IMG/VR virus record: IMGVR_UViG_3300027721_000009
Span: 1-64,000 of that record
Reading direction: 5' to 3' (one strand)
Source: a virus
Taxonomy: Duplodnaviria; Heunggongvirae; Uroviricota; Caudoviricetes
DNA length: 64,000 nt
Shown here: positions 9,775 to 57,828 of the stretch, in pieces
Layout: every line of letters starts with the position of its first letter
Position numbering within the stretch: position 1 is the stretch's first letter
Notes under the pieces: model-generated
Database searches by the model: none
What the model was told of the DNA's origin: nothing
What the model saw: the letters and a program-made list of their open reading frames with translations, nothing else
Program-made: the position numbers and the translations under genes

Positions 9775-10234
9775 GGAATACTTCACGGAAGAGGAACGCA
9801 TCGTAATTGATGTGGATCCTGAATACACTATCTCTAATATGGAGAAGGCTAACGCGGATCTAGATGCCGTGACCGAATCTCCATTCGTGAACTCCGCGTT
9901 GTTTGTCAATGCGGTGCGTGGCACTCTGGAACGCTACGGTGTCGTTCTACCTTCACACTCAAACATGCAGCAGCTACAGATGGAAGGTGAGTGGGTGTAT
10001 CAGCTAGGTGATTCCGGTCACTATGTCTACATGGTTCACAACCTGTCGCCGGAAGGTGCGGTTGAGGGCTATGCTCAGATCGTGGATCAGGAAGAACTGG
10101 ATGACCTAGCAGAACTTGGCATCCCCGAAACGGTGGAACCAGAGCAGCAGGATCGACGGGAACCTTCCGAGTGGATGAAGTATCCTAAAGCACGCAGGGA
10201 CGATGACTCAGGAAATACGAACGAGTACACCTAA
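9758..10234 (+). CDS. hypothetical acidic protein
   Basis: ATG preceded by GGTGGA RBS; acidic C-terminus. Confidence 0.5.
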   Translation: MLLKFKEYFTEEERIVIDVDPEYTISNMEKANADLDAVTESPFVNSALFVNAVRGTLERYGVVLPSHSNMQQLQMEGEWVYQLGDSGHYVYMVHNLSPEGAVEGYAQIVDQEELDDLAELGIPETVEPEQQDRREPSEWMKYPKARRDDDSGNTNEYT

Positions 10235-32933: not shown

Positions 32934-34358
32934 ATGAACGCAACACGTAAGAACGCATTTGTAGCCGCAGCACTTTCGGTGCCGGTAGAGGCTCGTACCG
33001 ACAACGGTATGAAGGCTCAGAAGTCCACCATGTCCGCAATCGTAGACCTGTTCTACATCGTCGGTTCTTCGCGTGGCAAGAATCTCTCGCGCCAGTTCGA
33101 AACTGCCATGCAGCAGGATGAAGACCTTGCGCTCCGTATCGCATTGTGGGCGCGTGACGCTCGCGGTGGTGCGGGTGAGCGTGAGGTATTCAAGTTCCTC
33201 TTGACGCACCTTGAGTTGTCGCGTCCAGACTTCCTCTTAAATTCGAAGTTCTTGGCAAAGGTGCCGGAACTCGGACGTTGGGACGACTTGCTCGTTCTTT
33301 CGGAGCCTCGCGCAAAGGCGAAGGCATTCGACTTGATCAAATCTGCGCTTGAGTCTGGCAACGGACTATGCGCAAAGTGGATGCCACGTAAGGGCAAGGT
33401 TGCTCGCGAACTTCGCGAACACTTCGGCATGTCGCCAAAGGCATACCGCAAGACTCTTGTTGGCTTGTCCAACACGGTCGAGCAGAAGCTTTGTGCGCGT
33501 GAGTTCGACCAAATCAACTACTCGCACGTTCCTTCGCTCGCAATGTCGCGCTACATGAAGGCGTTCTCTAAGAATGACGCAGAGCGTTTCGTTGCATACC
33601 GTGAGTCCTTGAAGAAGGGCGAAACGAAGATCAACGCGAAGGGTGTATTCCCTTATGACGTAATCAAGGCTCTCCGCGCAGGCGGCGACCGTGACGTATG
33701 TAACGCGCAGTGGGACGCACTGCCTGACTACATGGACGACACCAACGTTCTGCCTCTGGTAGACGTTTCGGGATCCATGCACTGTCCGGTTGGTGGCAAC
33801 CCTAACTTGCAGTGCATCGACGTTGCACTTTCGCTCGGACTCTACACTTCGGGACGTAACAAGGGTGTGTTCAAGGACATGTTCCTTACGTTCTCCGCAG
33901 ATCCGGAACTGTTGAAGGTTACGGGTACGCTCTCGCAGCGTATGGATCAGATGAACCAGTCTGAGTGGGGTATGAACACCAATCTGCACAAGGCATTCAC
34001 AAGAATCCTTGACGTTGCAGTGAAGGGTAACGTTCCGCAGGCAGACATGCCATCGGTTCTGTTGATCATGTCGGACATGCAGTTTGACCAGTGCGCTCGC
34101 TTCGATGACTCTGCTATGCAGATGATCGAACGCAAGTACGCTGCGGCAGGCTACAAGGTTCCTGTCATCGTGTTCTGGAACATCAGTGCCGGTGGTAAGG
34201 ATAACGCGCCAGTGTCCTTCGACAAGAAGGGTGTGGCTCTCGTTTCCGGATGCTCGCCTGCAATCATGAAGGCTGTCCTCGCGGCAGACTTCGATGACCT
34301 CTCGCCTGAGACAATCGTGCGGGATGCGGTAAGTATTCCTCGCTATGACTATCGTTGA
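32934..34358 (+). CDS. vWA-domain protein with MIDAS motif; N-terminal helical domain possibly TROVE/Ro60-like (DUF2828-type)
   Basis: C-terminal DVSGSM...T...SDMQF MIDAS arrangement. N-terminal ~270 aa helical with ARDARGGAGER. The TROVE assignment is a hypothesis. Confidence 0.5.
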   Translation: MNATRKNAFVAAALSVPVEARTDNGMKAQKSTMSAIVDLFYIVGSSRGKNLSRQFETAMQQDEDLALRIALWARDARGGAGEREVFKFLLTHLELSRPDFLLNSKFLAKVPELGRWDDLLVLSEPRAKAKAFDLIKSALESGNGLCAKWMPRKGKVARELREHFGMSPKAYRKTLVGLSNTVEQKLCAREFDQINYSHVPSLAMSRYMKAFSKNDAERFVAYRESLKKGETKINAKGVFPYDVIKALRAGGDRDVCNAQWDALPDYMDDTNVLPLVDVSGSMHCPVGGNPNLQCIDVALSLGLYTSGRNKGVFKDMFLTFSADPELLKVTGTLSQRMDQMNQSEWGMNTNLHKAFTRILDVAVKGNVPQADMPSVLLIMSDMQFDQCARFDDSAMQMIERKYAAAGYKVPVIVFWNISAGGKDNAPVSFDKKGVALVSGCSPAIMKAVLAADFDDLSPETIVRDAVSIPRYDYR

Positions 34359-41867: not shown

Positions 41868-41896
41868 TTGACAGGGTTTGAATTAGAGAGTATACT
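41868..41896 (+). promoter_or_regulatory. sigma70-like promoter TTGACA-N17-TATACT heading the tRNA array
   Basis: Read from the sequence. Same AATTAGAC upstream context as the promoter at 32520. Confidence 0.55.
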
Positions 41897-42342: not shown

Positions 42343-42416
42343 GCAAAGGTCGTCTAACGGTTTAGGATACTAGACTTTCAATCTGGAAGATGCGGGTTCG
42401 AATCCCGTCCTTTGCT
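42343..42416 (+). tRNA. tRNA-Glu (anticodon TTC), CCA encoded
   Basis: Hand-folded cloverleaf; T-loop GGTTCGAATCC. Confidence 0.7.
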
Positions 42417-42538
42417 CCAATTCTCAGAGCGCGACTAAATGCGCGTTCGGTAATGTGTCGGGAAAAGAGCGGTGCAATTCCGCAGTCACCTTCGGGTGTC
42501 AGTAAGTGTAATCAGGTGCACGTTCCCATTGTTTCTAT

Positions 42539-42611
42539 TCCGGGTTGACTAGAGTGGTAATAGCCGCGACTGTTAATCGCGTACTCGTAGGTTCGATCCC
42601 TACACCCGGAG
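42539..42611 (+). tRNA. tRNA-Asn (GTT)
   Basis: Hand-folded; anticodon loop CTGTTAA. Confidence 0.7.
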
Positions 42612-42618
42612 CCAACAT

Positions 42619-42691
42619 GCGTAGGTAATTCAACGGCTAGATTGCTTCCCTGTCACGGAAGATTATGCGGGTTCGAATCCCGTCTTACGCG
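42619..42691 (+). tRNA. tRNA-Asp (GTC)
   Basis: Hand-folded; loop CTGTCAC. Confidence 0.7.
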
Positions 42692-42805
42692 CCAACTTCG
42701 TAGTATGACCTACGTAAGATGTATTCCCGCTCGCAAAAGCGTAGGAGCATCCGGTGTCAAAGTCGCAGGGGGTTGCGTATCCTGATAAAACGCAAGACGA
42801 ATTCC

Positions 42806-42876
42806 GGGGAGTTAGTATAACGGGATTATTTCTCGCTTGCACCGAGAAGACAAGGGTTCGATTCCCTTACTCTCCA
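42806..42876 (+). tRNA. tRNA-Ala (TGC)
   Basis: Hand-folded; G3-U70 in the acceptor stem; loop CTTGCAC. Confidence 0.65.
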
Positions 42877-42884
42877 CCAACAAC

Positions 42885-42958
42885 GGGTCTGTCGTATAAC
42901 GGCATATTATATCCGGCTCTTAACCGGTAAGATTAGGGTTCGATTCCCTACAGACCCA
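42885..42958 (+). tRNA. tRNA-Lys (CTT)
   Basis: Hand-folded; loop CTCTTAA. Confidence 0.6.
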
Positions 42959-42966
42959 CCAATCAT

Positions 42967-43050
42967 GAGCGTAACACCCAATAGGAAGGGTATCGGGCTG
43001 TAACCCCGAAGTCGGCTAGTTCCGTGTAGGTTCGACTCCTACTGCGCTCA
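42967..43050 (+). tRNA. tRNA-Tyr (GTA), long variable arm
   Basis: Hand-folded; loop CTGTAAC. Confidence 0.65.
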
Positions 43051-43058
43051 CCAATTTT

Positions 43059-43150
43059 GTTCCTGTAGTTTAACGGTAGAACACCACCCTTATAAAGTGG
43101 CATTGTCGCCAGATTAGCGAACGGTCTAGGTTCGAATCCTAGCAGGAACA
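43059..43150 (+). tRNA. type II tRNA, anticodon ambiguous (CCTTATAAA loop region)
   Basis: Good acceptor and T-arm, about 22-nt variable arm; anticodon stem could not be placed unambiguously. Confidence 0.45.
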
Positions 43151-43161
43151 CCAGTAGATTT

Positions 43162-43235
43162 CGGAGTGTAGCTCAGTCTGGTAGAGCACTGCGTTTGGGG
43201 CGCAGGTGTCCAAAGTTCGAATCTTTGTACTCCGA
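43162..43235 (+). tRNA. tRNA-Pro (TGG)
   Basis: Hand-folded; loop TTTGGGG. Confidence 0.7.
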
Positions 43236-43244
43236 CCAATTTTT

Positions 43245-43320
43245 GCGAGTGTAGCAGAATCGGCATATGCGGGACACTTAAAACGTCCGTCACTTGTGGG
43301 TTCGACTCCCACTACTCGCA
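43245..43320 (+). tRNA. tRNA with Leu-type anticodon TAA (76 nt, short variable loop)
   Basis: Loop CTTAAAA closed by a weak stem; class I length is unusual for Leu. Confidence 0.45.
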
Positions 43321-43543
43321 CCAGAACTTGCGCGAACGCTAGGGATGACAACCCAAGGTCTTGCTCGTCACAAGACTGTTAGTAACGCAACGTATAAAGC
43401 GGAGCGCGGAAATCGCGTTCGCAAACAGAATGATAGAGCCACCGGTAAAACTCCGGTCCTTGATAGACTAGCAAGCTACAAGGTAGTTCAAGAGGTCAAC
43501 GCTTCGCAGCAAAGACCGCGACAGAACACTATCGCATATTTAC

Positions 43544-43614
43544 GCGGGGTTGGCATAATGGTTGTGTCCAAGTCTTCCAAACTTGTTACGCGGGTTCGAT
43601 TCCCGCACTCCGCT
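43544..43614 (+). tRNA. tRNA-Gly (TCC)
   Basis: Hand-folded; loop CTTCCAA. Confidence 0.7.
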
Positions 43615-43621
43615 CCAATTC

Positions 43622-43694
43622 GCCCTTATAGCATAACGGAAAGTGCGTCGGGTTTCTACCCCGTTCGGTGTGGGTTCGATTCCTACTGAGGGCA
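43622..43694 (+). tRNA. tRNA-Arg (TCT)
   Basis: Hand-folded; loop TTTCTAC with a 4-bp anticodon stem. Confidence 0.55.
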
Positions 43695-43707
43695 CCAATT
43701 ATTCAAT

Positions 43708-43781
43708 GCGCCTGTGACGGAACTGGCATACGTGTTAGTCTTAGAAGCTAAATTTTGTGGGTTCGACTCCCACCGGGCGCA
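43708..43781 (+). tRNA. tRNA with Leu-type anticodon TAG (74 nt, class I length)
   Basis: Stem TTAGT/GCTAA, loop CTTAGAA; paralog of the 48155 gene. Confidence 0.55.
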
Positions 43782-43791
43782 CCAATTTCAT

Positions 43792-43862
43792 GTGGGATAA
43801 GTGTTACGGTAGCACAATAGTCTCCAAAACTACTAGCGGGGGTTCGACTCCCTCATCCCACG
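43792..43862 (+). tRNA. tRNA-Trp (CCA)
   Basis: Hand-folded; loop CTCCAAA. Confidence 0.65.
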
Positions 43863-43870
43863 CCAACATC

Positions 43871-43943
43871 GGGTCCATGACGTAACGGCTAGCGTATCGG
43901 GCTTTTACCCCGTAAAGTCAGAGTTCGAATCTCTGTGGACCCA
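43871..43943 (+). tRNA. tRNA-Lys (TTT)
   Basis: Hand-folded; loop CTTTTAC. Confidence 0.65.
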
Positions 43944-44125
43944 CCAAAAAAGGTAGCTCGTAGCTTCCTAGAGAGTTAGTGCCGCTGCCGGTGCGAGTAG
44001 TTAGCCAACACTACTGCGCAGCAGAGAACGGTACTAACGATCTTCAATAGCGCGATAGATAGCTTCGCGGGTGTTAGCGGGTATGGTAGGAAATGACCGT
44101 ATCAAAAACCCGCCGCGAATTCAAT

Positions 44126-44197
44126 GCCGGTGTCTTCTAATGGCTAGGAACGTCAGCCGATTACTGACTAATGGGGGTTCGATTCCTCTCACCGGTA
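44126..44197 (+). tRNA. tRNA-Ile (GAT), unusual loop CCGATTA
   Basis: Perfect 5-bp anticodon stem GTCAG/CTGAC; C33 and T37 are atypical. Confidence 0.5.
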
Positions 44198-44205
44198 CCA
44201 ACTTT

Positions 44206-44277
44206 GCCCTTGTATTTCAACGGACAGAATACGACGCTACGAACGTCATGATGGGGGTTCGATTCCCTCCGAGGGTA
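44206..44277 (+). tRNA. tRNA-Arg (ACG)
   Basis: Hand-folded; loop CTACGAA. Confidence 0.6.
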
Positions 44278-44285
44278 CCAACTTT

Positions 44286-44357
44286 GTCTCTATAGTGTAA
44301 TGGATAACACGCAACTCTCCGAAGGTTGTAATTCAGGCTCGACTCCTGATAGGGACA
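44286..44357 (+). tRNA. tRNA-Arg (CCG)
   Basis: Hand-folded; loop CTCCGAA; T-loop CTCGACT. Confidence 0.6.
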
Positions 44358-44404
44358 CCAAACACAATGCCGCAAAAATGGGGAAACCTGTTGCGTGGCT
44401 CTCC

Positions 44405-44476
44405 GGTGATATCGTACAACGGCTAGTACAGGAGTCTCATAAGCTCTTAATGATGGTTCGATTCCATCTTTCACCA
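44405..44476 (+). tRNA. tRNA-Met (CAT)
   Basis: Hand-folded; loop CTCATAA. Confidence 0.6.
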
Positions 44477-44486
44477 CCAATTCAAT

Positions 44487-44558
44487 GCCGTCATAGTATA
44501 ATGGCGATTACGTCTGTCTTGTAAGCAGACTATCTCAGTTCGATTCTGAGTGACGGCT
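44487..44558 (+). tRNA. tRNA-Thr (TGT)
   Basis: Hand-folded; loop CTTGTAA. Confidence 0.7.
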
Positions 44559-44566
44559 CCAAATAT

Positions 44567-44639
44567 GTAAGCGTGGCAGACCGGCAGATGCATCGGATTG
44601 CAAACCCGATTTAAGCGAGTTCAATTCTCGCCGCTTACT
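44567..44639 (+). tRNA. tRNA-Cys (GCA)
   Basis: Hand-folded; loop TTGCAAA. Confidence 0.6.
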
Positions 44640-44648
44640 CCAAACAAT

Positions 44649-44719
44649 GCCCGATTCGTAAAATGGTATTACCTCGCTTTTACACGGCGAAGTCGGCAGT
44701 TCGATCCTGTCATCGGGTA
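44649..44719 (+). tRNA. tRNA-Val (TAC)
   Basis: Hand-folded; loop TTTACAC. Confidence 0.65.
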
Positions 44720-44731
44720 CCAACAAACAAT

Positions 44732-44804
44732 AGCGAAAGAGTGAAACGGTTTACATTCTAGCCTCATAAGCTAGAGACATTGGGTTCGACTCCCATGATC
44801 GCTA
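44732..44804 (+). tRNA. second CAT-anticodon tRNA (fMet, Met or Ile2/lysidine)
   Basis: Perfect anticodon stem CTAGC/GCTAG, loop CTCATAA; imperfect acceptor stem. Confidence 0.5.
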
Positions 44805-44812
44805 CCAACAAC

Positions 44813-44883
44813 GTCCGATTAGCTTAAAAGTGAAGCACAGACCTGATAAGTCTGAGAAGTAGGAGCATTACCTACATTGGACA
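44813..44883 (+). tRNA. tRNA (GAT) with non-canonical T-loop AGCATTA
   Basis: Perfect acceptor and anticodon stems; T-arm GTAGG-AGCATTA-CCTAC lacks the TTC. Confidence 0.5.
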
Positions 44884-44972
44884 CCAACTACATTCAGCGC
44901 ACGAAAAGGTAAGTAGTGCGGTCTTGCGTCAACAAGGCGAGTTGTATCTTGACGGATATGATGACTGCGTGC

Positions 44973-45044
44973 GCCGCCATAGTATAACGGTTATTACAAG
45001 GTCTTGGTAAGACTTGAATCACAGTTCGATTCTGTGTGGTGGCA
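44973..45044 (+). tRNA. tRNA-Thr (GGT)
   Basis: Hand-folded; loop TTGGTAA. Confidence 0.65.
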
Positions 45045-45130
45045 CCAATTCAATTCAGCACTCGTTCATTTTCGCGAATGTTCGAAGCTACTGTGAAAGT
45101 CAGTCGTCGGTAGCGCGATAGCTACGCCAT

Positions 45131-45201
45131 GCGGGTATGATGTATTGGTTGCCTAGAACTTTGCCAAAGTTCATGAACGGGTTCGATTCCCGTTACCCGC
45201 T
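45131..45201 (+). tRNA. tRNA-Gly (GCC)
   Basis: Hand-folded; loop TTGCCAA. Confidence 0.7.
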
Positions 45202-45206
45202 CCAAT

Positions 45207-45821
45207 TCAACACGGATCGTATCTGTAATCCAAGCGATACAGGTCTTCGATCCCGCGTCTTAGATCGTCGGTAACAACGAGGTCTGTTATGAAGTTCGGC
45301 TTCTCGTTCTCAACGGGAATGTCGATTGCCGTATCACCACCGAAGATGCCGATAAGTCTTCTGGCTTCCGATTCGAAGTCATGATAGTTGAGTACGTTCA
45401 TGTTCGGATGGTCAAACCATGCGGACTGCGGCTTGAAGCCGAGAATGTTAGTGCGGTTGATCCGCTCCAACAAATCCACCGGCTGACGATTGATCTTCTC
45501 TCTTAGGTGTTGCGGCAGCGCGTTGAATGACTCTTCATCCAATGGCTCTGGCATGACGACACCAGAGAAGTCTTCCGGAAAAAGTTTGAACAGGACGGTT
45601 CGATACGTGCGCAGAAAGTTGTACGTGGATACGAAACGTTCTACAGGGTCGCGCCAGAAAGCGTAACCCGTCAGTGCTAAATACGCGGGACTTGGAGTGT
45701 CATGAATGTGAACAGCAACATTCGTCCCAAGCGGTCTTAGCAGATTTCGAATGGTAGTCGAACCAGTCTTCGGCACCAGATAGAAAATGTATTTGTTATC
45801 GTGACTGACGATCATACTCAT
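45207..45821 (-). CDS. sulfotransferase-family protein (the only convincing minus-strand gene in the window)
   Basis: N-terminal YLVPKTGSTT (5'-PSB, PAPS-binding-like) and a later RDP... region. Inserted inside the tRNA array. Confidence 0.6.
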   Translation of the reverse strand: MSMIVSHDNKYIFYLVPKTGSTTIRNLLRPLGTNVAVHIHDTPSPAYLALTGYAFWRDPVERFVSTYNFLRTYRTVLFKLFPEDFSGVVMPEPLDEESFNALPQHLREKINRQPVDLLERINRTNILGFKPQSAWFDHPNMNVLNYHDFESEARRLIGIFGGDTAIDIPVENEKPNFITDLVVTDDLRRGIEDLYRLDYRYDPC

Positions 45822-45943
45822 ATTTAGGGGAAGAGAAATGTTCCAAGAAAGAAATAGAGCATACTACCTAAGACAAGCGCGAGCATGTTTCAAGGCAGGC
45901 TTGATCTTTCTGAAACGTTCGGTCTTCCTCCCCAAGAGATAAT

Positions 45944-46016
45944 GTCCTCTAAACTAATCTAGTGAAAGTGCAAGTTTGAAAAACTTGAGAGGTTGGAGCG
46001 TAACCAACAGAGGACA
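45944..46016 (+). tRNA. tRNA-Phe (GAA) with non-canonical T-loop AGCGTAA
   Basis: Perfect acceptor GTCCTCT/AGAGGAC and anticodon stem CAAGT/ACTTG. Confidence 0.55.
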
Positions 46017-46125
46017 CCACATTTCCTACGTCACTGAAATTGAACGTAGCGTAATAGAGTCAACAGATGAAACGACCTCCCTAGTGGTGCACTCAATAGT
46101 GCTGAAAAAATCTGTCGAATACAAT

Positions 46126-46199
46126 GCACCGGTCTTCTAACAGGATAGGAAAACAGATTCTCAATCTGTGCAATGACGGTTCGAATCCGTTCCGGTGCG
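46126..46199 (+). tRNA. tRNA-Glu (CTC)
   Basis: Hand-folded; loop TTCTCAA. Confidence 0.65.
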
Positions 46200-46277
46200 C
46201 CAACCAATCGTCCCGCGCATAGCTCGACAGCGCATGTGTACACATGGGCAGAATCAACTGCCGGGATGACCAGATAA

Positions 46278-46349
46278 CAGGATGTAAGTCAAAAGCAGAC
46301 GACCTCGCTTGGAACGAGGAGGTAGGTGGAGCGTTACCACCCATCCTGA
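46278..46349 (+). tRNA. tRNA (TGG, Pro-type) with non-canonical T-loop AGCGTTA
   Basis: Perfect stems; T-arm GGTGG-AGCGTTA-CCACC. Confidence 0.5.
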
Positions 46350-46495
46350 CCAACATCTTGCGTACATTTTCTAGAGGGTGTACGTGAGGACTTGAAAGTA
46401 GCCGACTGGCAAATTACGATTCAAGCGTCACGCCCTTTACGATACAGGGCGACTCATTCAGAAAGTAGTTCATATGGACTACTAAGTAGATCAAT

Positions 46496-46569
46496 GGTGC
46501 CGGTAGCATAATGGTTAATGCCCAAGACTGTGAATCTTGAAGATGCGGGTTCGAATCCCGTCCAGCACC
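46496..46569 (+). tRNA. tRNA-His (GTG) with G-1
   Basis: Extra 5' G pairing with C73; loop CTGTGAA. Confidence 0.7.
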
Positions 46570-46591
46570 CCAAACACAAACGGAGTTTCCC

Positions 46592-46771
46592 ATGGCAGCG
46601 AAGAACGATGTAACAGGCGATAGCATAAAAACTAAGACCGGCAACTCTAATGCATATGCAAAGGGTTGGGATCGTATCTTCAAGAAAGGGAAAGCCAAGA
46701 AAGGTGAAGAACTAACAGTGTGCGTTGCAAAGCGCGGCGTTGGTAAGTCAACCTTCAACAAGAACAATTGA
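46592..46771 (+). CDS. small ORF (59 aa) inside the tRNA array
   Basis: GGAG RBS 7 nt upstream; motif AYAKGWDRIFKKG; its TGA overlaps the first nt of tRNA-Gln. Confidence 0.4.
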   Translation: MAAKNDVTGDSIKTKTGNSNAYAKGWDRIFKKGKAKKGEELTVCVAKRGVGKSTFNKNN

Positions 46772-46843
46772 CCACATGCGGTACCGGTATCTGCACCTTG
46801 TCTTTGAAACAAGATTTTCTAGGTTCGAATCCTAGGTGGTCAG
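46769..46843 (+). tRNA. tRNA-Gln (TTG)
   Basis: Hand-folded; perfect anticodon stem CTTGT/ACAAG, loop CTTTGAA. Confidence 0.65.
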
Positions 46844-46977
46844 CCAATTTCTCTCGCGAGGAAAAACAACGAATCGTACTACGTTGTAAAACAAGGGTAC
46901 GCAACCATGTGCTGAAAGCAGACGGCTAACGTGCTGTCTCTTCCTTCGGGAAGTGGAGTAAGAGTGGTGGTAGTAAG

Positions 46978-47055
46978 CGATTCTAAGATAGTTCAATCAG
47001 GTAGAACAACCTCACGCTAAGAGGGAGACAGAGGTTCAAATCCTCACTAGAATCC
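46978..47055 (+). pseudogene. degenerate tRNA-like sequence (D-arm and T-arm present, acceptor pairing broken, no CCA)
   Basis: TAGTTCAATCAGGTAGAAC D-arm and GGTTCAAATCC T-loop, but no consistent 7-bp acceptor stem. Confidence 0.3.
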
Positions 47056-47093
47056 GGACGCAGCTTCCAAGAATGCCAAATGCGTCCAACTTT

Positions 47094-47164
47094 TCTCGGC
47101 TCGTCTAACGGCAGGACGCAACACTCTGAATGTTGCTATCGAGGTTCGAATCCTTGGCTGAGAA
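47094..47164 (+). tRNA. tRNA-Gln (CTG)
   Basis: Hand-folded; loop CTCTGAA. Confidence 0.7.
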
Positions 47165-47207
47165 CCAAACATACATACTCTTGAGTGACCCTCAAGAGGA
47201 TTACAAG

Positions 47208-47750
47208 ATGGAACCGATTCAAGTGATGTACGAAGGCGACCTCGCCCCTCTGATTGAGTGGGCTGAGAATGGCGACAGGGATCGCGACGGATTAGGCTTC
47301 GCGCCTGAACCGTTCTACTCATGGGTGCGCAATCACATGCCGCCCTACTGTCGCGGATTCGTTACGAACACCATCGGGTACATAACGGAGAATGGAATCT
47401 TCGACGGTGATTGGGTTAAGGGATATCCACATATCCATACCACAACGATGTTTTGGGAACCCGAGATATACACCATCATCACCTATCTGATCGTACCCGA
47501 AGAGGGTGGCGAATTCGCGATGGGTGGATTGGAACGGAACGATCCGTACACTTTGATTCCGGTCAAGCCGGGATTGTCCATCGGGTGTGATTCAATCACA
47601 TGGCATGGAGTCAAGCAAGTACGAAAGGGAAAGCGCGTTGCGATAGTGACGGCAGGCTTTCCATCACAAGAGTACCAGAAGAAATGTCTGGCACTGAGAA
47701 ACGAGAACAAAGGAAGGTTGCGCGAGAGGCTTATGCGCCCTGTTTGCTAA
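47208..47750 (+). CDS. putative 2OG-Fe(II) oxygenase-like protein
   Basis: AGAGGA RBS. HxD...H-like YPHIHTT...WHGV. Last ~40 nt overlap tRNA-Ser(GCT), with the stop TAA inside its anticodon loop. Confidence 0.4.
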   Translation: MEPIQVMYEGDLAPLIEWAENGDRDRDGLGFAPEPFYSWVRNHMPPYCRGFVTNTIGYITENGIFDGDWVKGYPHIHTTTMFWEPEIYTIITYLIVPEEGGEFAMGGLERNDPYTLIPVKPGLSIGCDSITWHGVKQVRKGKRVAIVTAGFPSQEYQKKCLALRNENKGRLRERLMRPVC

Positions 47751-47796
47751 ACAGAGGGATGTAACAGTCACAGAGGTTCGAATCCTCTACCTTCCG
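47712..47796 (+). tRNA. tRNA-Ser (GCT), type II
   Basis: Hand-folded; loop TTGCTAA; long variable arm. Confidence 0.65.
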
Positions 47797-47804
47797 CCAA
47801 ATTT

Positions 47805-47891
47805 GGAAGATTGACCGAGAGGCTTATGGTTCCCGCTTGGAAAGCGGTGAGTGGGGAAACCTACACACAGGTTCAAATCCTGTATCTTCCG
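47805..47891 (+). tRNA. tRNA-Ser (GGA), type II
   Basis: Hand-folded; loop TTGGAAA. Confidence 0.6.
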
Positions 47892-47899
47892 CCACATAT

Positions 47900-47970
47900 G
47901 GTTCTGTCGTATAGAAGCAATACACGGCATTGACATTGCTGAAAAGATGGAGCGTTACCATCCAGAACCA
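47900..47970 (+). tRNA. tRNA (GAC, Val-type) with non-canonical T-loop AGCGTTA
   Basis: Acceptor GGTTCTG/CAGAACC; T-arm GATGG-AGCGTTA-CCATC. Confidence 0.45.
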
Positions 47971-47979
47971 CCAACTAAA

Positions 47980-48064
47980 GGAAGGTTGGCAGAGAGGCTA
48001 ATTGCCGCTGTTTCGAAAGCAGATGGGTGTAAAAACCACACAGGTTCAAATCCTGTACCTTCCG
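47980..48064 (+). tRNA. tRNA-Ser (CGA), type II
   Basis: Hand-folded; loop TTCGAAA. Confidence 0.55.
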
Positions 48065-48073
48065 CCAGACAAT

Positions 48074-48147
48074 GCGAGTGTGATGTAACTGGCAAACGTG
48101 ATCGGCTCAAACCCGATTTTTTGTGGGTTCGAATCCCACCACTCGCA
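48074..48147 (+). tRNA. tRNA with Leu-type anticodon CAA (74 nt, class I length)
   Basis: Perfect anticodon stem ATCGG/CCGAT, loop CTCAAAC. Confidence 0.55.
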
Positions 48148-48154
48148 CCAATAC

Positions 48155-48228
48155 GCGCCTATGACGGAACAGGCATACGTCTAACGTTGAGAACGTTAGT
48201 TTTGTGGGTTCGAATCCCACTAGGCGCA
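48155..48228 (+). tRNA. tRNA with Leu-type anticodon GAG (74 nt, class I length)
   Basis: Perfect anticodon stem TAACG/CGTTA, loop TTGAGAA. Confidence 0.55.
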
Positions 48229-48325
48229 CCAAACATTGAGAGTATGGAAATTACTCAATGAAATTGGACTAGGTGAGGATGGAACGTTGCTAGTACGTAC
48301 ACGGAATACCATAACTGTTTAGTCG

Positions 48326-48495
48326 CCGGAACCATAACCGGAACAATTTACTGAGTCGAGCTAACGCAGGCAACTGAGGAAGTTCGCGACTCTCGCCAAG
48401 GTCGCGTGGGAGGCTAACGCCGTCTAACCACCGTGACACAGAGAGCAACACAAACAGAACGTGGGAAACCTTGGCTTATACGTTCGGGTTGTGGC
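48326..48495 (+). ncRNA. RNase P RNA-like element, apparently miniaturised (catalytic-domain motifs present, specificity-domain region missing)
   Basis: In order: GAGGAAGUUCG (48376; compare E. coli GAGGAAAGUCCGG), GGCUAACGCC (48412; compare GGUAACGCC), ACAGAGAGCAA (48438; exact 11-mer of M1 RNA), ACAGAAC...GGCUUAU (48454-48479; compare ACAGAACCCGGCUUAU). Terminal helix CCAUAACCGGAAC (48332) with GUUCGGGUUGUGG (48482). Confidence 0.45.
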
Positions 48496-48637
48496 AAAGA
48501 TGAATGTTAGCATAGAACAGAATCGCGGCTACGGACTCAGTAATTTCAATAGCTGACCCATACGTGTCGAAAGCTCTTTAGGCAAGACTTGCGGAAGTCG
48601 AAATACGCAAGTTAGACGGTGGGTTGGCGGTACCTAT

Positions 48638-48711
48638 ACCCTTGTAGTTTCAACGGACAGAACACCCCGGTCCTAACGGGTCCAATGCAGGTTCGAATCC
48701 TGTCGAGGGTA
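48638..48711 (+). tRNA. tRNA-Arg (CCT)
   Basis: Hand-folded; loop GTCCTAA; 4-bp anticodon stem. Confidence 0.55.
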
Positions 48712-48722
48712 CCACATATTCG

Positions 48723-48793
48723 CTGTCATCGTATAATGGCTATTACGGATGTTTCGTAAGCATCCTATCTCAGTTCGACTCTGAGTGACAGCA
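48723..48793 (+). tRNA. tRNA-Thr (CGT)
   Basis: Hand-folded; loop TTCGTAA. Confidence 0.65.
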
Positions 48794-48800
48794 CCAGTTT

Positions 48801-48885
48801 GGAAGACTAACTCAACAAGGTTGGGACTCGCCTTGAAAGCGATGGGATGCCTAACGGCATTGGGGCGCGATACCTCAGTCTTCCG
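48801..48885 (+). tRNA. tRNA-Ser (TGA), type II, with non-canonical T-loop CGCGATA
   Basis: Acceptor GGAAGAC/GTCTTCC; loop CTTGAAA. Confidence 0.5.
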
Positions 48886-48964
48886 CCAAGTTAGGGGAAA
48901 CTTTCAGCAAATCAAACAAACTTTACCTGTAATAAAGCAAAAGCGTTTCCCGCCAAATTAGAAA

Positions 48965-49029
48965 GCGTACAGCAAACCAAAATTCTCTACGAAAGACCTA
49001 GACCGGTTCGACTCCGGAATGCTCCACCA
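48965..49029 (+). other. tRNA-like 3' module (T-arm CCGG-TTCGACT-CCGG + CCA) without a matching 5' half
   Basis: Preceded by the CAGCAAACCAA motif shared with 32570/32815, and by a GGGAAAC...GUUUCCC-GCCA minihelix at 48897-48957. Confidence 0.3.
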
Positions 49030-49123
49030 ATGCGAAGGGGCTTTAGTGTAACGGCAGCACATGAAAAAACGCTTTCTGTCTTTCCTAAATAGCCCTATAG
49101 TTTCGACTTTGAGGGCTATCCCA

Positions 49124-49441: not shown

Positions 49442-49485
49442 ATACTACACTGATATCAATCTAATTGCCAAAGGATCCAACCACC

Positions 49486-50601
49486 ATGCTACGCTTCAAA
49501 GAACACCTGATTGAGAAAGAGATTTCGGAGTATGCCTACACGTTTGAGGATTTCGTCGCCCTAGGCGAGCAGTCCTTGGATGAAATGAAGCTGACCGATA
49601 TTCCTGTCAAGGTTGAGGGTCCGAAGGCTAATCGCGAAGCAACCCCGGCTCATGGCGTTCCTACCGAGAAGCAGAAGGGTGGCAACCACTGGCAGAAGCT
49701 CCGCAAGGGTGCTGCGTCTTACTTCTCTAAGTCTCCCGAAGAGCAGAAGAAAGCTCATGAGGAAGCGCATAAGGTTCTAGGTCACACGGCTCTAATGGGT
49801 GACGAAGCATCTAACCCGAAGCTAGCCAAGAGCGGTAAGACGATGCCTGAGTTCCGTACTAAGGGACTCACCCTAGCACCGTCCACCCATTCCGGCATCG
49901 ACGTATGCCCTAACGCATCCTCTGAGTGTAAGGCAAGCTGCCTAGGCTCCGAAGCCGGTCGCGCACACATGGCAAAGGATGCGCGAGTCAAGCGTACCCA
50001 CAAGTTGTTTGACCATCCAGAACACTTCTACGCCAAGCTCGACCATGAGATTTCCTCTGCGAAGAGCGCGGCACACAAGGCAGGGCAGAAGCTAGCCGTA
50101 AGACTGAACGTGGCTTCCGACGTTCCGCATGAGCATCTTGCTCGCGGTCTGTTCGACAAGCACAAGGACGTTCACTTCTACGACTATACGAAGATCACCG
50201 GTCGCGCCAATCACGCGAAGAAGCCTGACAACTATCACCTGACGCTATCCTCGACGGGATTGAACCACAAGGAAAGCAACTGGTCGCACGTTCGGAAGCA
50301 TTTGGACAAGGGTGGTGTGGCAGCAATGGCATTCCACATCAATGCGAAGAGCCACGCAGGAAAGGCAACAGCCCTACCGTCGCATGTGCATGATGAAGAG
50401 ACAGGAAAGAAGTATCGCGTGATTGATGGTGACGAACACGATCATCGTCACTTGGACAAAGCCTACCATGGCATCGGAGAACACGAAGGCGTGATTGCCG
50501 GTCTTAAGTTTAAGGGCGGCGAAGGTAACATGGAGAAGGCAGGCAACTTTGCGGTGAAGCATGAAGGCGGCATTGCGGTTGCGAAGAAAGGGCAGAACTA
50601 A
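49486..50601 (+). CDS. hypothetical His/Lys-rich protein
   Basis: ATG at 49486 (TTG at 49465 is an alternative). Confidence 0.5.
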   Translation: MLRFKEHLIEKEISEYAYTFEDFVALGEQSLDEMKLTDIPVKVEGPKANREATPAHGVPTEKQKGGNHWQKLRKGAASYFSKSPEEQKKAHEEAHKVLGHTALMGDEASNPKLAKSGKTMPEFRTKGLTLAPSTHSGIDVCPNASSECKASCLGSEAGRAHMAKDARVKRTHKLFDHPEHFYAKLDHEISSAKSAAHKAGQKLAVRLNVASDVPHEHLARGLFDKHKDVHFYDYTKITGRANHAKKPDNYHLTLSSTGLNHKESNWSHVRKHLDKGGVAAMAFHINAKSHAGKATALPSHVHDEETGKKYRVIDGDEHDHRHLDKAYHGIGEHEGVIAGLKFKGGEGNMEKAGNFAVKHEGGIAVAKKGQN

Positions 50602-50676: not shown

Positions 50677-51255
50677 ATGACGGCTACAGCAGTTCAAATT
50701 CTAATCGCAGACAGCGCAGGCAACCCTAAAGATTGGGTTACGCTCGACTATGCATCCCATTACCTCGCATCCGATAAGGTTGTGTGGCAAGCCGGTTCGG
50801 TTGTCAAGACCTATCGCGGCGGTTTCAACCATGTGACCGGACTGCGTTCGACTCTGGACATTCACTCCATTCTCGGTATCTCCGGTAAGTTGCTAGGCGA
50901 CAAGTTCTTCACCAGAACGACCGTCTACACGGATCGTGAGATTCTGTACGCTCGCGACAGATACCTCTGTGCGTACTGCGGCGACGAGTTCAATGCTTAC
51001 AAGCTAACCATTGACCACGTTCATCCTCAGTCTCGCGGTGGTAAGAACGTCTGGCAGAACTGCGTCACCGCATGTAAGACTTGTAACCACAAGAAGGGTG
51101 ACAAGACTCCGGAAGAGGCAAAGATGCCATTGCTCTATGTGCCATACGCGCCAAACATGTTCGAAAAGATGATTCTAAAGAATCGCAACATCCTTTCGGA
51201 TCAGATGGACTTCCTCAAGGCGCGGGTTCCTAAGACTTCCAGAGTCTTCCTGTAA
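50677..51255 (+). CDS. HNH endonuclease
   Basis: C-terminal CAYCGDEF...LTIDHVHP...NCVTACKTCNHKKGDK HNH/zinc motif. Confidence 0.75.
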   Translation: MTATAVQILIADSAGNPKDWVTLDYASHYLASDKVVWQAGSVVKTYRGGFNHVTGLRSTLDIHSILGISGKLLGDKFFTRTTVYTDREILYARDRYLCAYCGDEFNAYKLTIDHVHPQSRGGKNVWQNCVTACKTCNHKKGDKTPEEAKMPLLYVPYAPNMFEKMILKNRNILSDQMDFLKARVPKTSRVFL

Positions 51256-51406: not shown

Positions 51407-51763
51407 ATGACTGATCATCACACTCCATTCTGGATTGAAGGGCTGTACGTTCTCAACGAGGGCGAGCTTGCCCGTCAGACTCTTACCGAGACTCGCATCT
51501 ATCGCGGCAACGATCCGCGATGCGTAATTCTCGGCGGCGATGCCTATTGGCAGTGGAGCGAGTTCGGTCCCTACAGAAACCACAATCAGGGTTTTTGTTG
51601 GACTCAGGCTCTTCACGATGGACTTGAGGGTTGGCATTCGACCATCTTCCATGCGGACGAGAATCCCCGATTCTGTGTGCATCCGCAGCATCCCGACTAT
51701 GCGCACGTTGCGCGGATTTGGGATTTGGTCAACGCGAACGTGTTCGTTCCGAAGGATTGGTAA
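51407..51763 (+). CDS. hypothetical protein
   Basis: 118-aa ORF beginning at the predicted TSS. Confidence 0.45.
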   Translation: MTDHHTPFWIEGLYVLNEGELARQTLTETRIYRGNDPRCVILGGDAYWQWSEFGPYRNHNQGFCWTQALHDGLEGWHSTIFHADENPRFCVHPQHPDYAHVARIWDLVNANVFVPKDW

Positions 51764-51767
51764 GATT

Positions 51768-52220
51768 ATGGCTATCCTATATATTGTGAGGGGCGTGTCC
51801 GGTTCGGGCAAGTCTACTCTGGCTCGCGAAATGGCATCTAAGCTTGGCTTGGAACACTATGAAGCGGACCAGTGGTTTGAGCGGGATGGAGTCTACAACT
51901 TCGATCCTCGCGAACTACAGAATGCGCACGCGGCTTGCTTGGAAAATGCAATGTACGCTATGCGACATTTGGGCGGGTGTATCGTGTCCAACACGTTCAC
52001 TCGCCTTTGGGAGATGCGAAACTATCTCGACTTTGCCGCAGAACTCGGCTGTCAGATTCGCATCATAACGTGCCGTGGGCAGTATCAGAATACGCACGGC
52101 TTGAGTGACAAGGACGTTGAAAAGCAGCGTGCGCGTTTCCAGAGCAATCTACAGATTGCCAAGGAATTGCAGTATGATCGGCAACGGTTCGGAATGATCG
52201 TCTTTTCGAACCATGGATAA
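51768..52220 (+). CDS. P-loop kinase of the polynucleotide kinase (Pnk) N-terminal-domain type
   Basis: LYIVRGVSGSGKSTLARE Walker A at the extreme N-terminus, as in T4 Pnk; about 150 aa. Confidence 0.55.
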   Translation: MAILYIVRGVSGSGKSTLAREMASKLGLEHYEADQWFERDGVYNFDPRELQNAHAACLENAMYAMRHLGGCIVSNTFTRLWEMRNYLDFAAELGCQIRIITCRGQYQNTHGLSDKDVEKQRARFQSNLQIAKELQYDRQRFGMIVFSNHG

Positions 52221-53109
52221 TGAAATGCACTTAGTTGATAGACAGTTGCGTGAGTTTGCTGAGTCCCATCCGGACTTAGTTTCCGTTCGCATGTCAGTTC
52301 GCCATCCGCGTCTGCGAGTGGTGAAGTACAAGCCGAAGGTTTTCTACAAGGCACTCTGGACTCCTGAGTTGTGCGAAATGCGCGGCTTAGTTGTGGACGA
52401 GGATTGGAACGTCATCGTGCGCCCTTTCCGCAAGATCTTCAACCGCTTCGAATCCGGTACCGATTTCCCGTTGGATGCCGAAGTTGCGGCTGCGCGTAAG
52501 GTCAACGGCTTCATGGCAGCGTTGACGATGGATGATGAATACGGCTTGATTGTTTCGACAACGGGTTCGTTGGATTCGCCATTCGTTACCATGGCTGAGA
52601 AGTATCTGCTGCCGTTGAAGGATTCCGGTCTGATCAACGGTGTTACGTATCTCTTCGAAATCGTGGATCCAGAGGATCCGCACATTGTCGAAGAGAAGGT
52701 TGGCGCATACCTGATTGGTGCGCGTGCGGTCTGTTCAAAGATCACGCTCCTAGAGTGTGACCTAGACGAGATTGCAAAGGGAATGGGTGTGTTGCGTCCG
52801 GAATGGAAGCGTGCATCGTTTCGCGAGATAGTCGAAGAGACTAAGACTTGCAAGCATGAGGGATTCGTTTGCTACAACGTAGAGAACGGACATGCTCTTA
52901 AGATCAAGTCTCCATACTATCTGGTTAAGAAGTTCTTCGCTCGCGTGCGTGCGGAGAAGCTAACGGCAGATTGGCTACAGGCTAATCGCCACAACTTTGA
53001 TGAAGAGTTTTACGGATTGATTGACTATATCTCGGACAACCGGGATCAGTTCACCACAATGGATCAAGAGGGGCGCAAGTCCTTCATCGAACACTTTTTG
53101 TCGTTATGA
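52213..53109 (+). CDS. ATP-dependent RNA ligase-like nucleotidyltransferase
   Basis: Motif I KVNGF (K-x-N/D-G), motif IV EGFV, motif V LKIKS. Confidence 0.5.
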   Translation: MDNEMHLVDRQLREFAESHPDLVSVRMSVRHPRLRVVKYKPKVFYKALWTPELCEMRGLVVDEDWNVIVRPFRKIFNRFESGTDFPLDAEVAAARKVNGFMAALTMDDEYGLIVSTTGSLDSPFVTMAEKYLLPLKDSGLINGVTYLFEIVDPEDPHIVEEKVGAYLIGARAVCSKITLLECDLDEIAKGMGVLRPEWKRASFREIVEETKTCKHEGFVCYNVENGHALKIKSPYYLVKKFFARVRAEKLTADWLQANRHNFDEEFYGLIDYISDNRDQFTTMDQEGRKSFIEHFLSL

Positions 53110-56769: not shown

Positions 56770-57828
56770 ATGAGCAAGCAAACACACATGTCCGTGTTCA
56801 TCGGACGCTTTCAGCCGCCACACAAGGCGCACATCGAAACCATCACTCGCGCATTGGAATTCTCCGACAAGGTGCTAATTCTAATCGGTTCGGCATTCAA
56901 GCCATCCGACACGCGCAATCCGTTCCCCGCAGCAGAACGCCGGGAAATGATCCAGACTTGCTTTAATCTGGAAACGCAAAAGCGACTCGTATTCGACTAT
57001 ATCTCCGACCATCCATACAACGATCTTGCGTGGGTGAAGAATGTCCAGACCGCAATCGACAAGGCTTACTATGACAACTTCGGTTGGCAGGACAAGGCTG
57101 ACATTACGCTGATCGGACACCACAAAGACGAGTCCACGTATTATCTCGACCTCTTCCCGTCTTACAAGCAAGCGGAAATGGAGAACATCTACGGTCTGGA
57201 TTCCACGACCATCCGTGAACTCTACTTCGCAGGCAAGGATGCGTGGAAGAACAGCAACATGAAGCGTGTCGCGCAGTTCGTTCCGCAGCCGGTCATGAAC
57301 TACATCACCAATCACATGAAGCTGATCGCGTATGATCGTCTTGTGCGCGAATTCGAATTCCTTCGCACCTACAGGCTACAGTGGTCGCAGGCTCCGTATC
57401 CACCAGTGTTCGTCACTGCGGATGCCGTTGTCACCAACATGGGACACGTTCTACTCGTTCGCCGCAAGTCCGCACCGGGAGAAGGTCTGTGGGCAATGCC
57501 GGGAGGTTTCCTCAATCAGTACGAAACGCTGCGTGAGTGTGCGAATCGCGAACTAGAGGAAGAGACTAAGATCAAGGTTCCGCCGCGAGTCCTCGACGGT
57601 TCAATCGTCAAGGAAAAGCGATACGATCATCCCGGTCGCTCGCTGCGCGGACGCACGATCACAACCGCATTTCACTTCGATCTACATGAACGGACTATGC
57701 CGAAGGTTCGCGGCTCAGATGACGCTGCGCAAGCCAAGTGGGTTCCGTTGGCTGAATTCATCAAGATGCAAGCCGTCATGTACGAAGACCACTATTCAAT
57801 CATCACCGACCTTCTAGGTTTGGGCTGA
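56770..57828 (+). CDS. natV: bifunctional NMN adenylyltransferase / Nudix hydrolase (NadM-Nudix, NatV-like)
   Basis: N-terminal [12 protein letters not shown] (HxGH-type); C-terminal Nudix box [24 protein letters not shown]. Confidence 0.85.

Follow-up and report, generated by a model that had tools for sequence, protein, structure and literature searches.

A tRNA array with five unusual genes

We analysed a stretch of 64,000 nucleotides (the window; positions 1 to 64,000 of the IMG/VR record IMGVR_UViG_3300027721_000009) from a virus of the class Caudoviricetes, which carries a long array of tRNA genes. Our results suggest that five of these genes encode working tRNAs with a normal cloverleaf, in which the elbow, where the D-loop and the T-loop meet, would be built from a different but matched set of bases.

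The array was delimited with ARAGORN, Rfam, our own cloverleaf scan and a covariance-model search:

42343..48888, plus strand: tRNA gene array

It comprises 40 credible tRNA genes and a marginal one, broken up by three open reading frames (ORFs) and several spacers, has 37 anticodons, serves all 20 amino acids and encodes the CCA end in nearly every gene. ARAGORN reported 35 tRNAs in the window, all on the plus strand between 42343 and 48796, and Rfam (family RF00005) reported 36 at its gathering score. Four genes were found by Rfam only (45944, 47900, 44732 and the marginal 46982) and three by ARAGORN only (44126, 46769 and 47712). Our total is the union of both sets plus two genes, 46278 and 48801, which were recovered by our own methods only and matched neither ARAGORN nor Rfam, even at E<=10. 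The five genes with odd loops are the following, with bit scores from RF00005 (gathering score 29 bits) and from R1, a covariance model described below:

44813..44886, plus strand: tRNA-Ile(GAU), T-loop AGCAUUA, D-loop AAAAGUG (ARAGORN; Rfam 51.4 bits; R1 75.2 bits)
45944..46019, plus strand: tRNA-Phe(GAA), the only tRNA-Phe of the window, T-loop AGCGUAA, D-loop AUCUAGUGA (Rfam 44.1 bits; R1 50.7 bits)
46278..46352, plus strand: second tRNA-Pro(UGG), with A37, T-loop AGCGUUA, D-loop AAAAGCA (own scan; R1 56.6 bits)
47900..47973, plus strand: tRNA-Val(GAC), the only GAC gene, T-loop AGCGUUA, D-loop AGAAGCA (Rfam 43.5 bits; R1 72.9 bits)
48801..48888, plus strand: tRNA-Ser(UGA), the only gene with a UGA anticodon, long variable arm, T-loop CGCGAUA, D-loop AACAAGGUUGG (minimum-energy fold)

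All five genes encode CCA and read as cloverleafs with arms and loops of standard size, U33 and a discriminator base. Our scanner, which constrains stem pairing and loop sizes and ignores loop sequence, returned 1,520 matches in the real loci and none in shuffled loci, and among the genes that it recovered are 44813, 45944, 46278 and 47900, whose stems are perfect or nearly so. At minimum energy (-31.4 kcal/mol), 48801-48888 folds into a cloverleaf with a long variable arm, in which the anticodon stem has 4 bp and a C/U mismatch.

The only conserved elbow bases kept in the odd genes are G19 and C56; position 18 is A, position 55 is G, and positions 54/58 are A/U (C/A in the Ser gene). Genes 44813, 45944, 46278 and 47900 fit exactly a class defined by a 7-nt T-loop with G55-C56 and a D-loop with AG. 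G55-C56 is also present in 48801, whose D-loop reads AAGG, so that the assignment of positions 18 and 19 is ambiguous; this D-loop resembles those of the odd-loop Ser tRNAs found in arrays of Verrucomicrobiota. The Ser gene is the weakest of the five.

The original prediction, made by reading the letters, had placed about 40 tRNA genes covering nearly all amino acids here, and the count holds. Cloverleaf folds also confirmed the five odd genes at the predicted starts with the predicted T-loops. Perfect acceptor and anticodon stems had been attributed to all five, but the anticodon stem of 48801 is not perfect, and ARAGORN, proposed as a check, detected 44813 but missed the other four. A sixth, milder T-loop variant had gone unnoticed:

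44286..44360, plus strand: tRNA-Arg(CCG) with C54, T-loop CUCGACU and a normal GG D-loop (own scan); the loop is identical in a related contig (L109:7521)

Positions 18 and 55 covary

IMG/VR was scanned for TGGAGCGTTACCA-N10-CCA, which gave at least 120 loci, and 121 viral loci were then scanned for every tRNA, whatever its loop. A motif scan of one genome per bacterial or archaeal species likewise gave at least 120 loci, many of the matches being chance ones inside protein-coding genes. Loci are referred to here by L numbers. Among the viral matches listed, 106 of 124 were tRNA-like by a relaxed test, compared with 5% of random positions; the number of true tRNAs depends on the criteria used, ranging from 46 to 106 of the 124 viral matches listed and from 27 to 45 of the 123 genome matches listed. 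The set used for covariation contained 1,338 distinct viral and 684 distinct bacterial tRNAs, from the 121 viral and 120 bacterial loci listed.

In this set the base at position 55 was closely associated with the D-loop (viral loci listed, duplicates kept):

U55: GG-containing D-loop in 1,246 of 1,289
G55: D-loop with AG and without GG in 198 of 220

When just the 7-nt D-loops were considered, positions 18,19/55,56 read GG/UC 329 times and AG/GC 90 times in the viral loci listed, and AG/GC 215 times in the bacterial loci listed, with only a handful of mixed combinations in either. The known 19-56 pair also covaries in the same tRNAs (GA/UU and GU/UA), and therefore the approach detects tertiary pairs. 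Thus, A18·G55 appears to replace G18·Ψ55, with G19-C56 kept. That the odd T-loops come with a matching change of the D-loop, from GG to AG, had escaped the original prediction; it points to a coherent alternative elbow and not to a defective one. Positions 54/58 vary independently of 55 (U/A, A/U, A/A, G/G and C/A), and any combination other than U/A is nearly always accompanied by A60, so 54/58(/60) reads as a module with several interchangeable states. The geometries of A18·G55 and of the 54/58/60 module are deduced here from covariation.

An extended Watson-Crick "kiss" between the D-loop AAAGC and the T-loop GCGUU was also considered. The AAAAGYA types can be accommodated by it, but the Phe types (AUCUAGUGA, AGAUAGAU) cannot, and therefore the simpler 18/55 rule was adopted.

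Model R1 was built from 53 G55-type tRNAs taken from unrelated viral contigs only, and the whole window was searched with it, filters off. Its four best matches were 44813, 47900, 46278 and 45944, in that order (E 1e-21 to 1e-13; these E-values are rough, the model having been calibrated briefly), and every canonical tRNA of the window scored 45.5 bits or less. Gene 48801 scored 14.2 bits (E 0.05) with this model, which has no long variable arm. Beyond the array region, the search of the window gave just one weak match, which falls within the permuted tRNA-like RNA described below (49037-49097; 12 bits, E 0.24).

The odd loops are conserved in a related virus

A gene for a GP88-like protein just downstream of the array (49465-50601) led us to a related viral contig, IMGVR_UViG_3300022562_000051 (172,580 bp), which carries a syntenic array on its two ends (loci L109 and L001). 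Three of the odd genes compare with their orthologues as follows:

Ile-GAU, orthologue L109:6792: 11 compensatory stem pairs, 3 changes at unpaired positions
Phe-GAA, orthologue L109:8164: 8 compensatory stem pairs, 1 change at unpaired positions
Val-GAC, orthologue L109:9474: 6 compensatory stem pairs, 0 of 29 unpaired positions changed

Since compensatory stem changes outnumber the unpaired ones, constraint is stronger on the odd D- and T-loops than on the helices. The orthologue of the odd Pro-UGG gene (L109:8535) has the T-loop UGCGAGU, with U54/A58 in place of the A54/U58 of the window, and Pro-UGG is kept as a duplicate in the relative too. The only Ile-GAU gene of the relative is the odd-loop form.

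These data bear on whether the five genes are pseudogenes, that is, duplicated tRNA genes whose T-loop was lost by drift. Two of the five were missed by ARAGORN and Rfam, and the array does contain one truly marginal tRNA-like sequence (46982-47052), as one might expect of decay. However, decay hardly accounts for orthologues whose loops scarcely vary while their stems carry 6 to 11 compensatory changes, for R1 scores that in four of the five exceed those of the canonical genes, or for the recurrence of the same loops, with a strict change of the D-loop partner, in more than 100 other viral contigs. We consider this explanation the least probable of those weighed here. The comparison of T-loops across related phages, which had been proposed as a check, thus came out in favour of real variants.

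We found no near relative of the array among 50,697 GenBank phage records, and a search for relatives through the sulfotransferase-like ORF of the array also found none. Of the odd types, only Phe matched a cultured phage in the GenBank records: between the window and Pseudomonas phage Boevelstad, the unpaired positions of tRNA-Phe differ only at 18 (A/G) and 55 (G/U). The Boevelstad tRNA-Phe(GAA) (PQ464592.1, 66679-66748; L259 5995-6070) has the T-loop AUCGUAA (A54/U58/A60) with a normal U55 and GG. It is not annotated in the deposited record, in which 14 neighbouring tRNAs are. A BLAST search of the same 50,697 records with the odd Tyr and CAU-anticodon tRNAs, both of them widespread, gave no match.

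Occurrence in other viruses and in bacteria

Some of the viral contigs with odd loops carry the odd elbow almost exclusively, in 18 of 19 tRNAs at L012 and in 16 of 16 at L075. The genome matches listed include at least 45 tRNAs, mostly from Verrucomicrobiota. Nearly all the array tRNAs of these bacteria have G55-type loops (UGCRANU, AGCGUUA, CGCGAUA, GGCAGCA) together with AG D-loops, and canonical tRNAs occur near the odd arrays, sometimes with the same anticodon, e.g. Arg-UCU in L241. Some of these arrays are chromosomal, because they lie on contigs of 0.6 to 5.9 Mb; note that some "bacterial" contigs of metagenome-assembled genomes may be mis-binned phage.

Within 8-kb windows, the Verrucomicrobiota loci (among the bacterial loci L124-L241, e.g. 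L175, L179, L197 and L229) hold 15 to 27 or more tRNA genes in a conserved order, and they use Arg-GCG, not Arg-ACG.

Large bacterial tRNA arrays of this kind, the L-arrays, have been reported to spread horizontally and to be present in Verrucomicrobia among other phyla (PMC8421152, Santamaria-Gomez et al. 2021). Our own scan of the Anabaena 7120 array found one G55-type gene, tRNA-Ile(GAU), with T-loop GGCAGUA and D-loop AAAAGUG, which is the sole Ile-GAU gene that the scan found in that array. In vivo, the operonic tRNA-Ile(GAU) of Anabaena was detected and found to be aminoacylated, and it ran aberrantly on gels (PMC8421152). Its charging may be taken as a hint, the only experimental one, that such tRNAs are processed and charged.

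A review of T-loops treats G18, U54, U55 and A58 as universal in cytoplasmic tRNAs (PMC7912444, 2021). The T-loop, the D-loop and G18 are not mentioned as features of these tRNAs in the L-array study (PMC8421152) or in two surveys of tRNA clusters (one of them PMC6409571). We found G55/A18 tRNAs described nowhere in the literature that could be searched; it misses most subscription journals, so that this absence is not proof.

An odd tRNA-Tyr(GUA) without a D hairpin, with the T-loop AGCGUUA, occurs in related loci and not in the window (for example viral L024, L026, L043 and L061; Verrucomicrobiota L125, L129, L143 and L175). In 52 of its 59 distinct sequences, compared with 14% in shuffles, the variable region pairs with six nucleotides that come after the acceptor stem, and more than 25 combinations of pairs were seen. 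These six nucleotides are followed by a conserved AAG, which could supply an elbow contact.

Decoding by the odd tRNAs

Phe-GAA, Val-GAC and Ser-UGA are present in the odd form only, with no canonical partner in the array or in the rest of the window. The original prediction had each odd gene duplicating an anticodon; this is true of Pro-UGG and formally of Ile-GAU, but not of these three sole genes. The partners of the two duplicated anticodons are the following:

43162..43238, plus strand: canonical tRNA-Pro(UGG) with G37 (ARAGORN, Rfam and own scan)
44126..44200, plus strand: second tRNA-Ile(GAU), with the atypical loop CCGAUUA (C33, U37) (ARAGORN; below the Rfam gathering score)

G37 is normally methylated, and the odd Pro gene has A37 in its place. 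Gene 44126 has no counterpart in the related contig. The C33 that it carries in place of the universal U33 (CCGAUUA or CCGAUAA) was also seen in tRNA-Ile(GAU) of L172, L128 and L177.

The five genes carry the expected identity features, as read from their sequences: A73 in Phe, Val and Ile, C1-G72 and A73 in Pro, and G73 with a long arm in Ser. Moreover, UUC, AUC and GUC (33, 30 and 23 per thousand in the phage ORFs) are preferred codons that would be read by odd tRNAs.

A different proposal was that the odd tRNAs are decoys or sponges for host anticodon nucleases, look-alikes that are cleaved instead of the useful tRNAs and are not used in translation. Pro-UGG is indeed a true duplicate, conserved as such in the relative, and a candidate tRNA repair module lies nearby. 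Nevertheless, an array without 45944 would be an array without Phe, and three of the five are the sole gene for their anticodon; acceptor stems, discriminators and CCA are all kept, as are the identity features; preferred codons are read; the loops are more conserved than the stems; the same class makes up entire bacterial arrays; and the Anabaena member is charged in vivo (PMC8421152). We consequently regard decoys, a suggestion of the original prediction, as very unlikely. Judged by their sequences, the five genes appear to be genuine, conserved tRNAs, neither decaying copies nor decoys.

Other RNAs and proteins encoded in and around the array

A gap between the tRNA genes (48232-48637) contains a further RNA gene:

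48349..48542, plus strand: miniature RNase P RNA-like gene, catalytic domain only, 194 nt (Rfam RF00373, 49.3 bits, E 5e-13)

Its score is below the RF00373 gathering score of 84, and the specificity domain is reduced, with about 90 S-domain positions of the model collapsed to about 23 nt. The P4 pseudoknot and the conserved regions CR-I, CR-IV and CR-V are present (GAGGAAGUUC, AGAUGAAUG, AUAGAACAGAA..GGCUACGG). Nineteen viral homologues (15 distinct) support the fold: 95.7% of cells are paired, 26 of 33 pairs show compensatory change, and the covariation score is 0.70 compared with 0.14 or less for slid controls. P4 is 100% paired in the 15 distinct sequences, with four of its six pairs compensatory. 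The homologues are about 195 to 250 nt long and sit in or beside tRNA arrays (L001 147-336; L007 about 9884-10138, minus strand; L034 6096-6324, minus strand; L071 about 442-698, minus strand; and L242-L256). We considered whether this RNA serves the odd elbows and rejected the idea, since 15 further viral contigs that have it carry mostly canonical tRNAs; none was found in the 120 bacterial odd-elbow-rich loci listed. A phage RNase P RNA is not reported in the literature that could be searched, which misses most subscription journals, and its absence there is not proof.

Two tRNA mimics follow the array, and a gene for a Ro-like protein lies further upstream:

48895..48955, plus strand: short tRNA-like element, 61 nt, in which a perfect acceptor-like stem of 7 bp ends with G-CCA; it has an internal hairpin and no T-arm (sequence reading)
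48957..49084, plus strand: circularly permuted tRNA-like RNA (folds, nhmmer)
32934-34358: Ro-like RNA-binding protein gene, phrog_850, DUF2828/DUF7788

The short element is 88% identical to L109 9408-9466 in the relative. The permuted RNA is closed by an outer stem, inside which lie a T-arm whose loop is the canonical UUCGACU, a closed hairpin resembling an acceptor stem, and a D-arm; it recurs at L001 1685-1815, with full-length nhmmer matches in L054, L002, L095, L100, L097, L031, L099, L096, L084, L024 and L117. It resembles the bacterial Y RNA YrlA in architecture only, and YrlA (Rfam RF02553) had no match in the window at E<=10.

The presence of such mimics and of a Ro-like protein gene raises the question of whether the five odd tRNAs serve outside translation, as primers, regulators or ligands of the Ro-like protein, in the way that Y RNAs mimic tRNA. 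The true mimics of the window look quite different from them, however, and in the five the anticodon arms are complete, the anticodons make sense, identity elements are in place and preferred codons are matched, which makes such roles improbable, about as much so as decoys.

The remaining features of the array and its flanks are these:

41868..41896, plus strand: sigma-70-like promoter match TTGACA-17-TATACT (11/12), a single strong match about 450 bp upstream of the array
45207..45821, minus strand: sulfotransferase-like ORF inside the array (Pfam PF03567, E 3e-7)
47208..47750, plus strand: ORF inside the array, no family match
50677..51255, plus strand: HNH endonuclease, 1.8 kb downstream of the array (Pfam PF14279, E 4e-18)
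51540..53109, plus strand: P-loop kinase (AAA_33) followed by a T4 Rnl1-type RNA ligase (PF13671, E 3e-14; PF09511, E 1e-8; phrog_562)

The promoter match agrees with the consensus promoter proposed for the array, but the number of promoter-like matches across the array region is not above that in shuffles. The kinase and the Rnl1-type ligase are likely a tRNA repair pair, which suggests that the host uses tRNA-cleaving defences.

Among the tRNA genes themselves, the marginal sequence at 46982-47052 (plus strand; Rfam 29.7 bits, 6-bp acceptor stem, loop ACGCUAA with C33, no CCA) is probably a degenerate tRNA gene. The tRNA-Ile(UAU) at 43059-43153 (plus strand) has a variable arm of about 25 nt, unusual for Ile and conserved in the relative (L109 6691-6783).

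Elsewhere in the window, a nicotinamide adenine dinucleotide (NAD) salvage set on the plus strand (57871-59244, 56770-57828 and 4986-6248) encodes a nicotinamide phosphoribosyltransferase and two NadR-like nucleotidyltransferase/NUDIX proteins, and other genes encode a B12-dependent ribonucleotide reductase (17432-19318), a thymidylate synthase and several sugar-modifying enzymes. These NAD salvage, nucleotide and sugar genes are typical auxiliary metabolism of large phages. For the ribonucleotide reductase, the nearest enzymes are those of Roseobacter and Puniceispirillum phages (about 60% identity), a resemblance too weak to name the host.

Discussion

We propose, with a probability of roughly 80%, that the five genes encode working elongator tRNAs with a normal cloverleaf and an elbow made from a different, matched set of bases. 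In this elbow G19-C56 would be kept and G18·Ψ55 would become A18·G55, with T54·A58 becoming A54/U58 (with A60) in four of the genes and C54/A58 in the Ser gene. The L-shape should persist, and with it processing, charging by the host synthetases and use by the ribosome. The odd tRNAs would then supply decoding of Phe (UUC), Ile (AUC), Val (GUC), Pro and Ser codons in the phage, and could represent a mobile lineage that moves between phage tRNA clusters and the L-arrays of bacteria. Their expression and charging in this phage are, at present, predictions from sequence.

Several points weigh against this proposal. A single T-loop motif (AGCGTTA) was used to choose the viral and bacterial loci, so the class frequencies are not prevalences; related sequences were counted separately, which inflates the counts, although 38 to 41 anticodons and many contigs are involved; and the cloverleaf scanner is home-made. 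A18·G55 is a non-standard pair whose geometry comes from covariation alone. Gene 48801 reaches just 14 bits with R1 and has the mismatch in its anticodon stem, and the T-loop of the relative's Ser-UGA is canonical. Finally, the charged Anabaena tRNA-Ile(GAU) migrated aberrantly, and misacylation was not excluded (PMC8421152).

The odd genes share with canonical tRNA (RF00005) the 7-bp acceptor stem, the 4-bp D stem, the 5-bp anticodon stem with a 7-nt loop and U33, the 5-bp T stem with a 7-nt loop, G53-C61, G19-C56, the discriminator and CCA. They differ in that canonical tRNA has G18, U54, U55 and A58, whereas the odd genes have A18, A54 (or C54), G55 and U58, with A60 accompanying the non-U/A 54/58. 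The eukaryotic initiator tRNA comes close in one respect, since it combines A54 and A60 with an altered 54/58 (A54·A58) in an otherwise normal T-loop; it keeps Ψ55, G18 and A58, however, whereas the odd genes have G55, A18 and U58 and are elongators of many identities (PMC7912444). tRNA-Pyl and metazoan mitochondrial tRNAs, like the odd genes, have neither GG in the D-loop nor TΨC in the T-loop, but theirs is a weakened elbow with shortened or missing arms, whereas the odd genes have standard sizes and a strict covariation of the replacement bases. tRNA-Pyl has a CUA anticodon, a 6-bp anticodon stem, a 3-nt variable loop and a 5-nt D-loop; the odd genes have sense anticodons, 5-bp anticodon stems, variable loops of 4-5 nt and D-loops of 7-9 nt.

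In its layout the array is of the type of the L-arrays (PMC8421152) and of phage tRNA clusters (Morgado & Vicente 2019, PMC6409571). As in these, dozens of contiguous, non-periodic tRNA genes lie on one strand, here 40 genes in 6.5 kb, with an HNH endonuclease gene nearby, and a horizontally mobile character and odd-elbow tRNAs are common to both. Phage tRNAs that escape anticodon nucleases also depart from the host consensus at conserved positions, in their case in the anticodon loop and here in the elbow; unlike them, the odd-elbow class is also found in bacterial chromosomal arrays. Work on T5 and on mycobacteriophages reportedly has phage tRNAs evading anticodon nucleases through such changes of the anticodon loop.

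Why would an elbow be rewired? TrmH, TrmA, TruB and TrmI act on G18, U54, U55 and A58, respectively. Since all four bases are replaced, the AGCGUUA form offers no target base to any of these enzymes. A possible, though doubtful, addition to our proposal, giving it a reason and not replacing it, is that the rewired elbow was selected because it escapes the notice of host factors that read the canonical elbow, such as T-loop tRNases and modification enzymes, or does without them, so that the phage's decoding set would survive host attack or shut-off. In support of this, the class occurs in phage clusters and in supernumerary bacterial arrays, where canonical genes with the same anticodon coexist (Arg-UCU in L241), and some viral contigs have the odd elbow in nearly every tRNA (L012 and L075). 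Besides the loss of the four modified elbow bases, the odd Pro tRNA has A37, not G37, and the kinase and Rnl1-type ligase beside the array suggest pressure from tRNA-cleaving defences. A toxin that acts at the elbow does exist, since CdiA-CT E479 cuts tRNA between T and Ψ of the T-loop (PMC9086364). On the other hand, 34 of the 40 phage tRNAs keep a canonical elbow, and therefore any protection would be partial; moreover, the loci were chosen by motif, and any enrichment in mobile elements relative to housekeeping genes would be a biased estimate. An anti-phage nuclease directed at the elbow was not found in the literature searched, and we know of none.

Taken at its widest, and tentatively, the A18·G55 elbow (with A54/U58/A60 and related states) could be a second self-consistent tRNA architecture, a parallel decoding set of mobile elements such as phage tRNA clusters and L-arrays, whole Verrucomicrobiota arrays of about 40 genes among them; this set would be free of Gm18, m5U54, Ψ55 and m1A58 and would escape host factors that read the canonical elbow. 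G18, U54, Ψ55 and A58 are taught as invariant; four conserved modification enzymes act on them, and tRNA-finding software uses them as landmarks. It follows that tRNAs are undercounted in phages and mobile arrays: two of the five genes described here went undetected, and the tRNA-Phe of a Pseudomonas phage was left unannotated. The odd class is a natural experiment on how an elbow is put together and how RNase P, the CCA-adding enzyme, the L1 stalk of the ribosome and T-box RNAs recognise it, and its members are ready-made scaffolds for the engineering of orthogonal tRNAs. For the phages themselves, the odd elbow provides a testable handle on why they, and the L-arrays, carry tRNA sets of their own.

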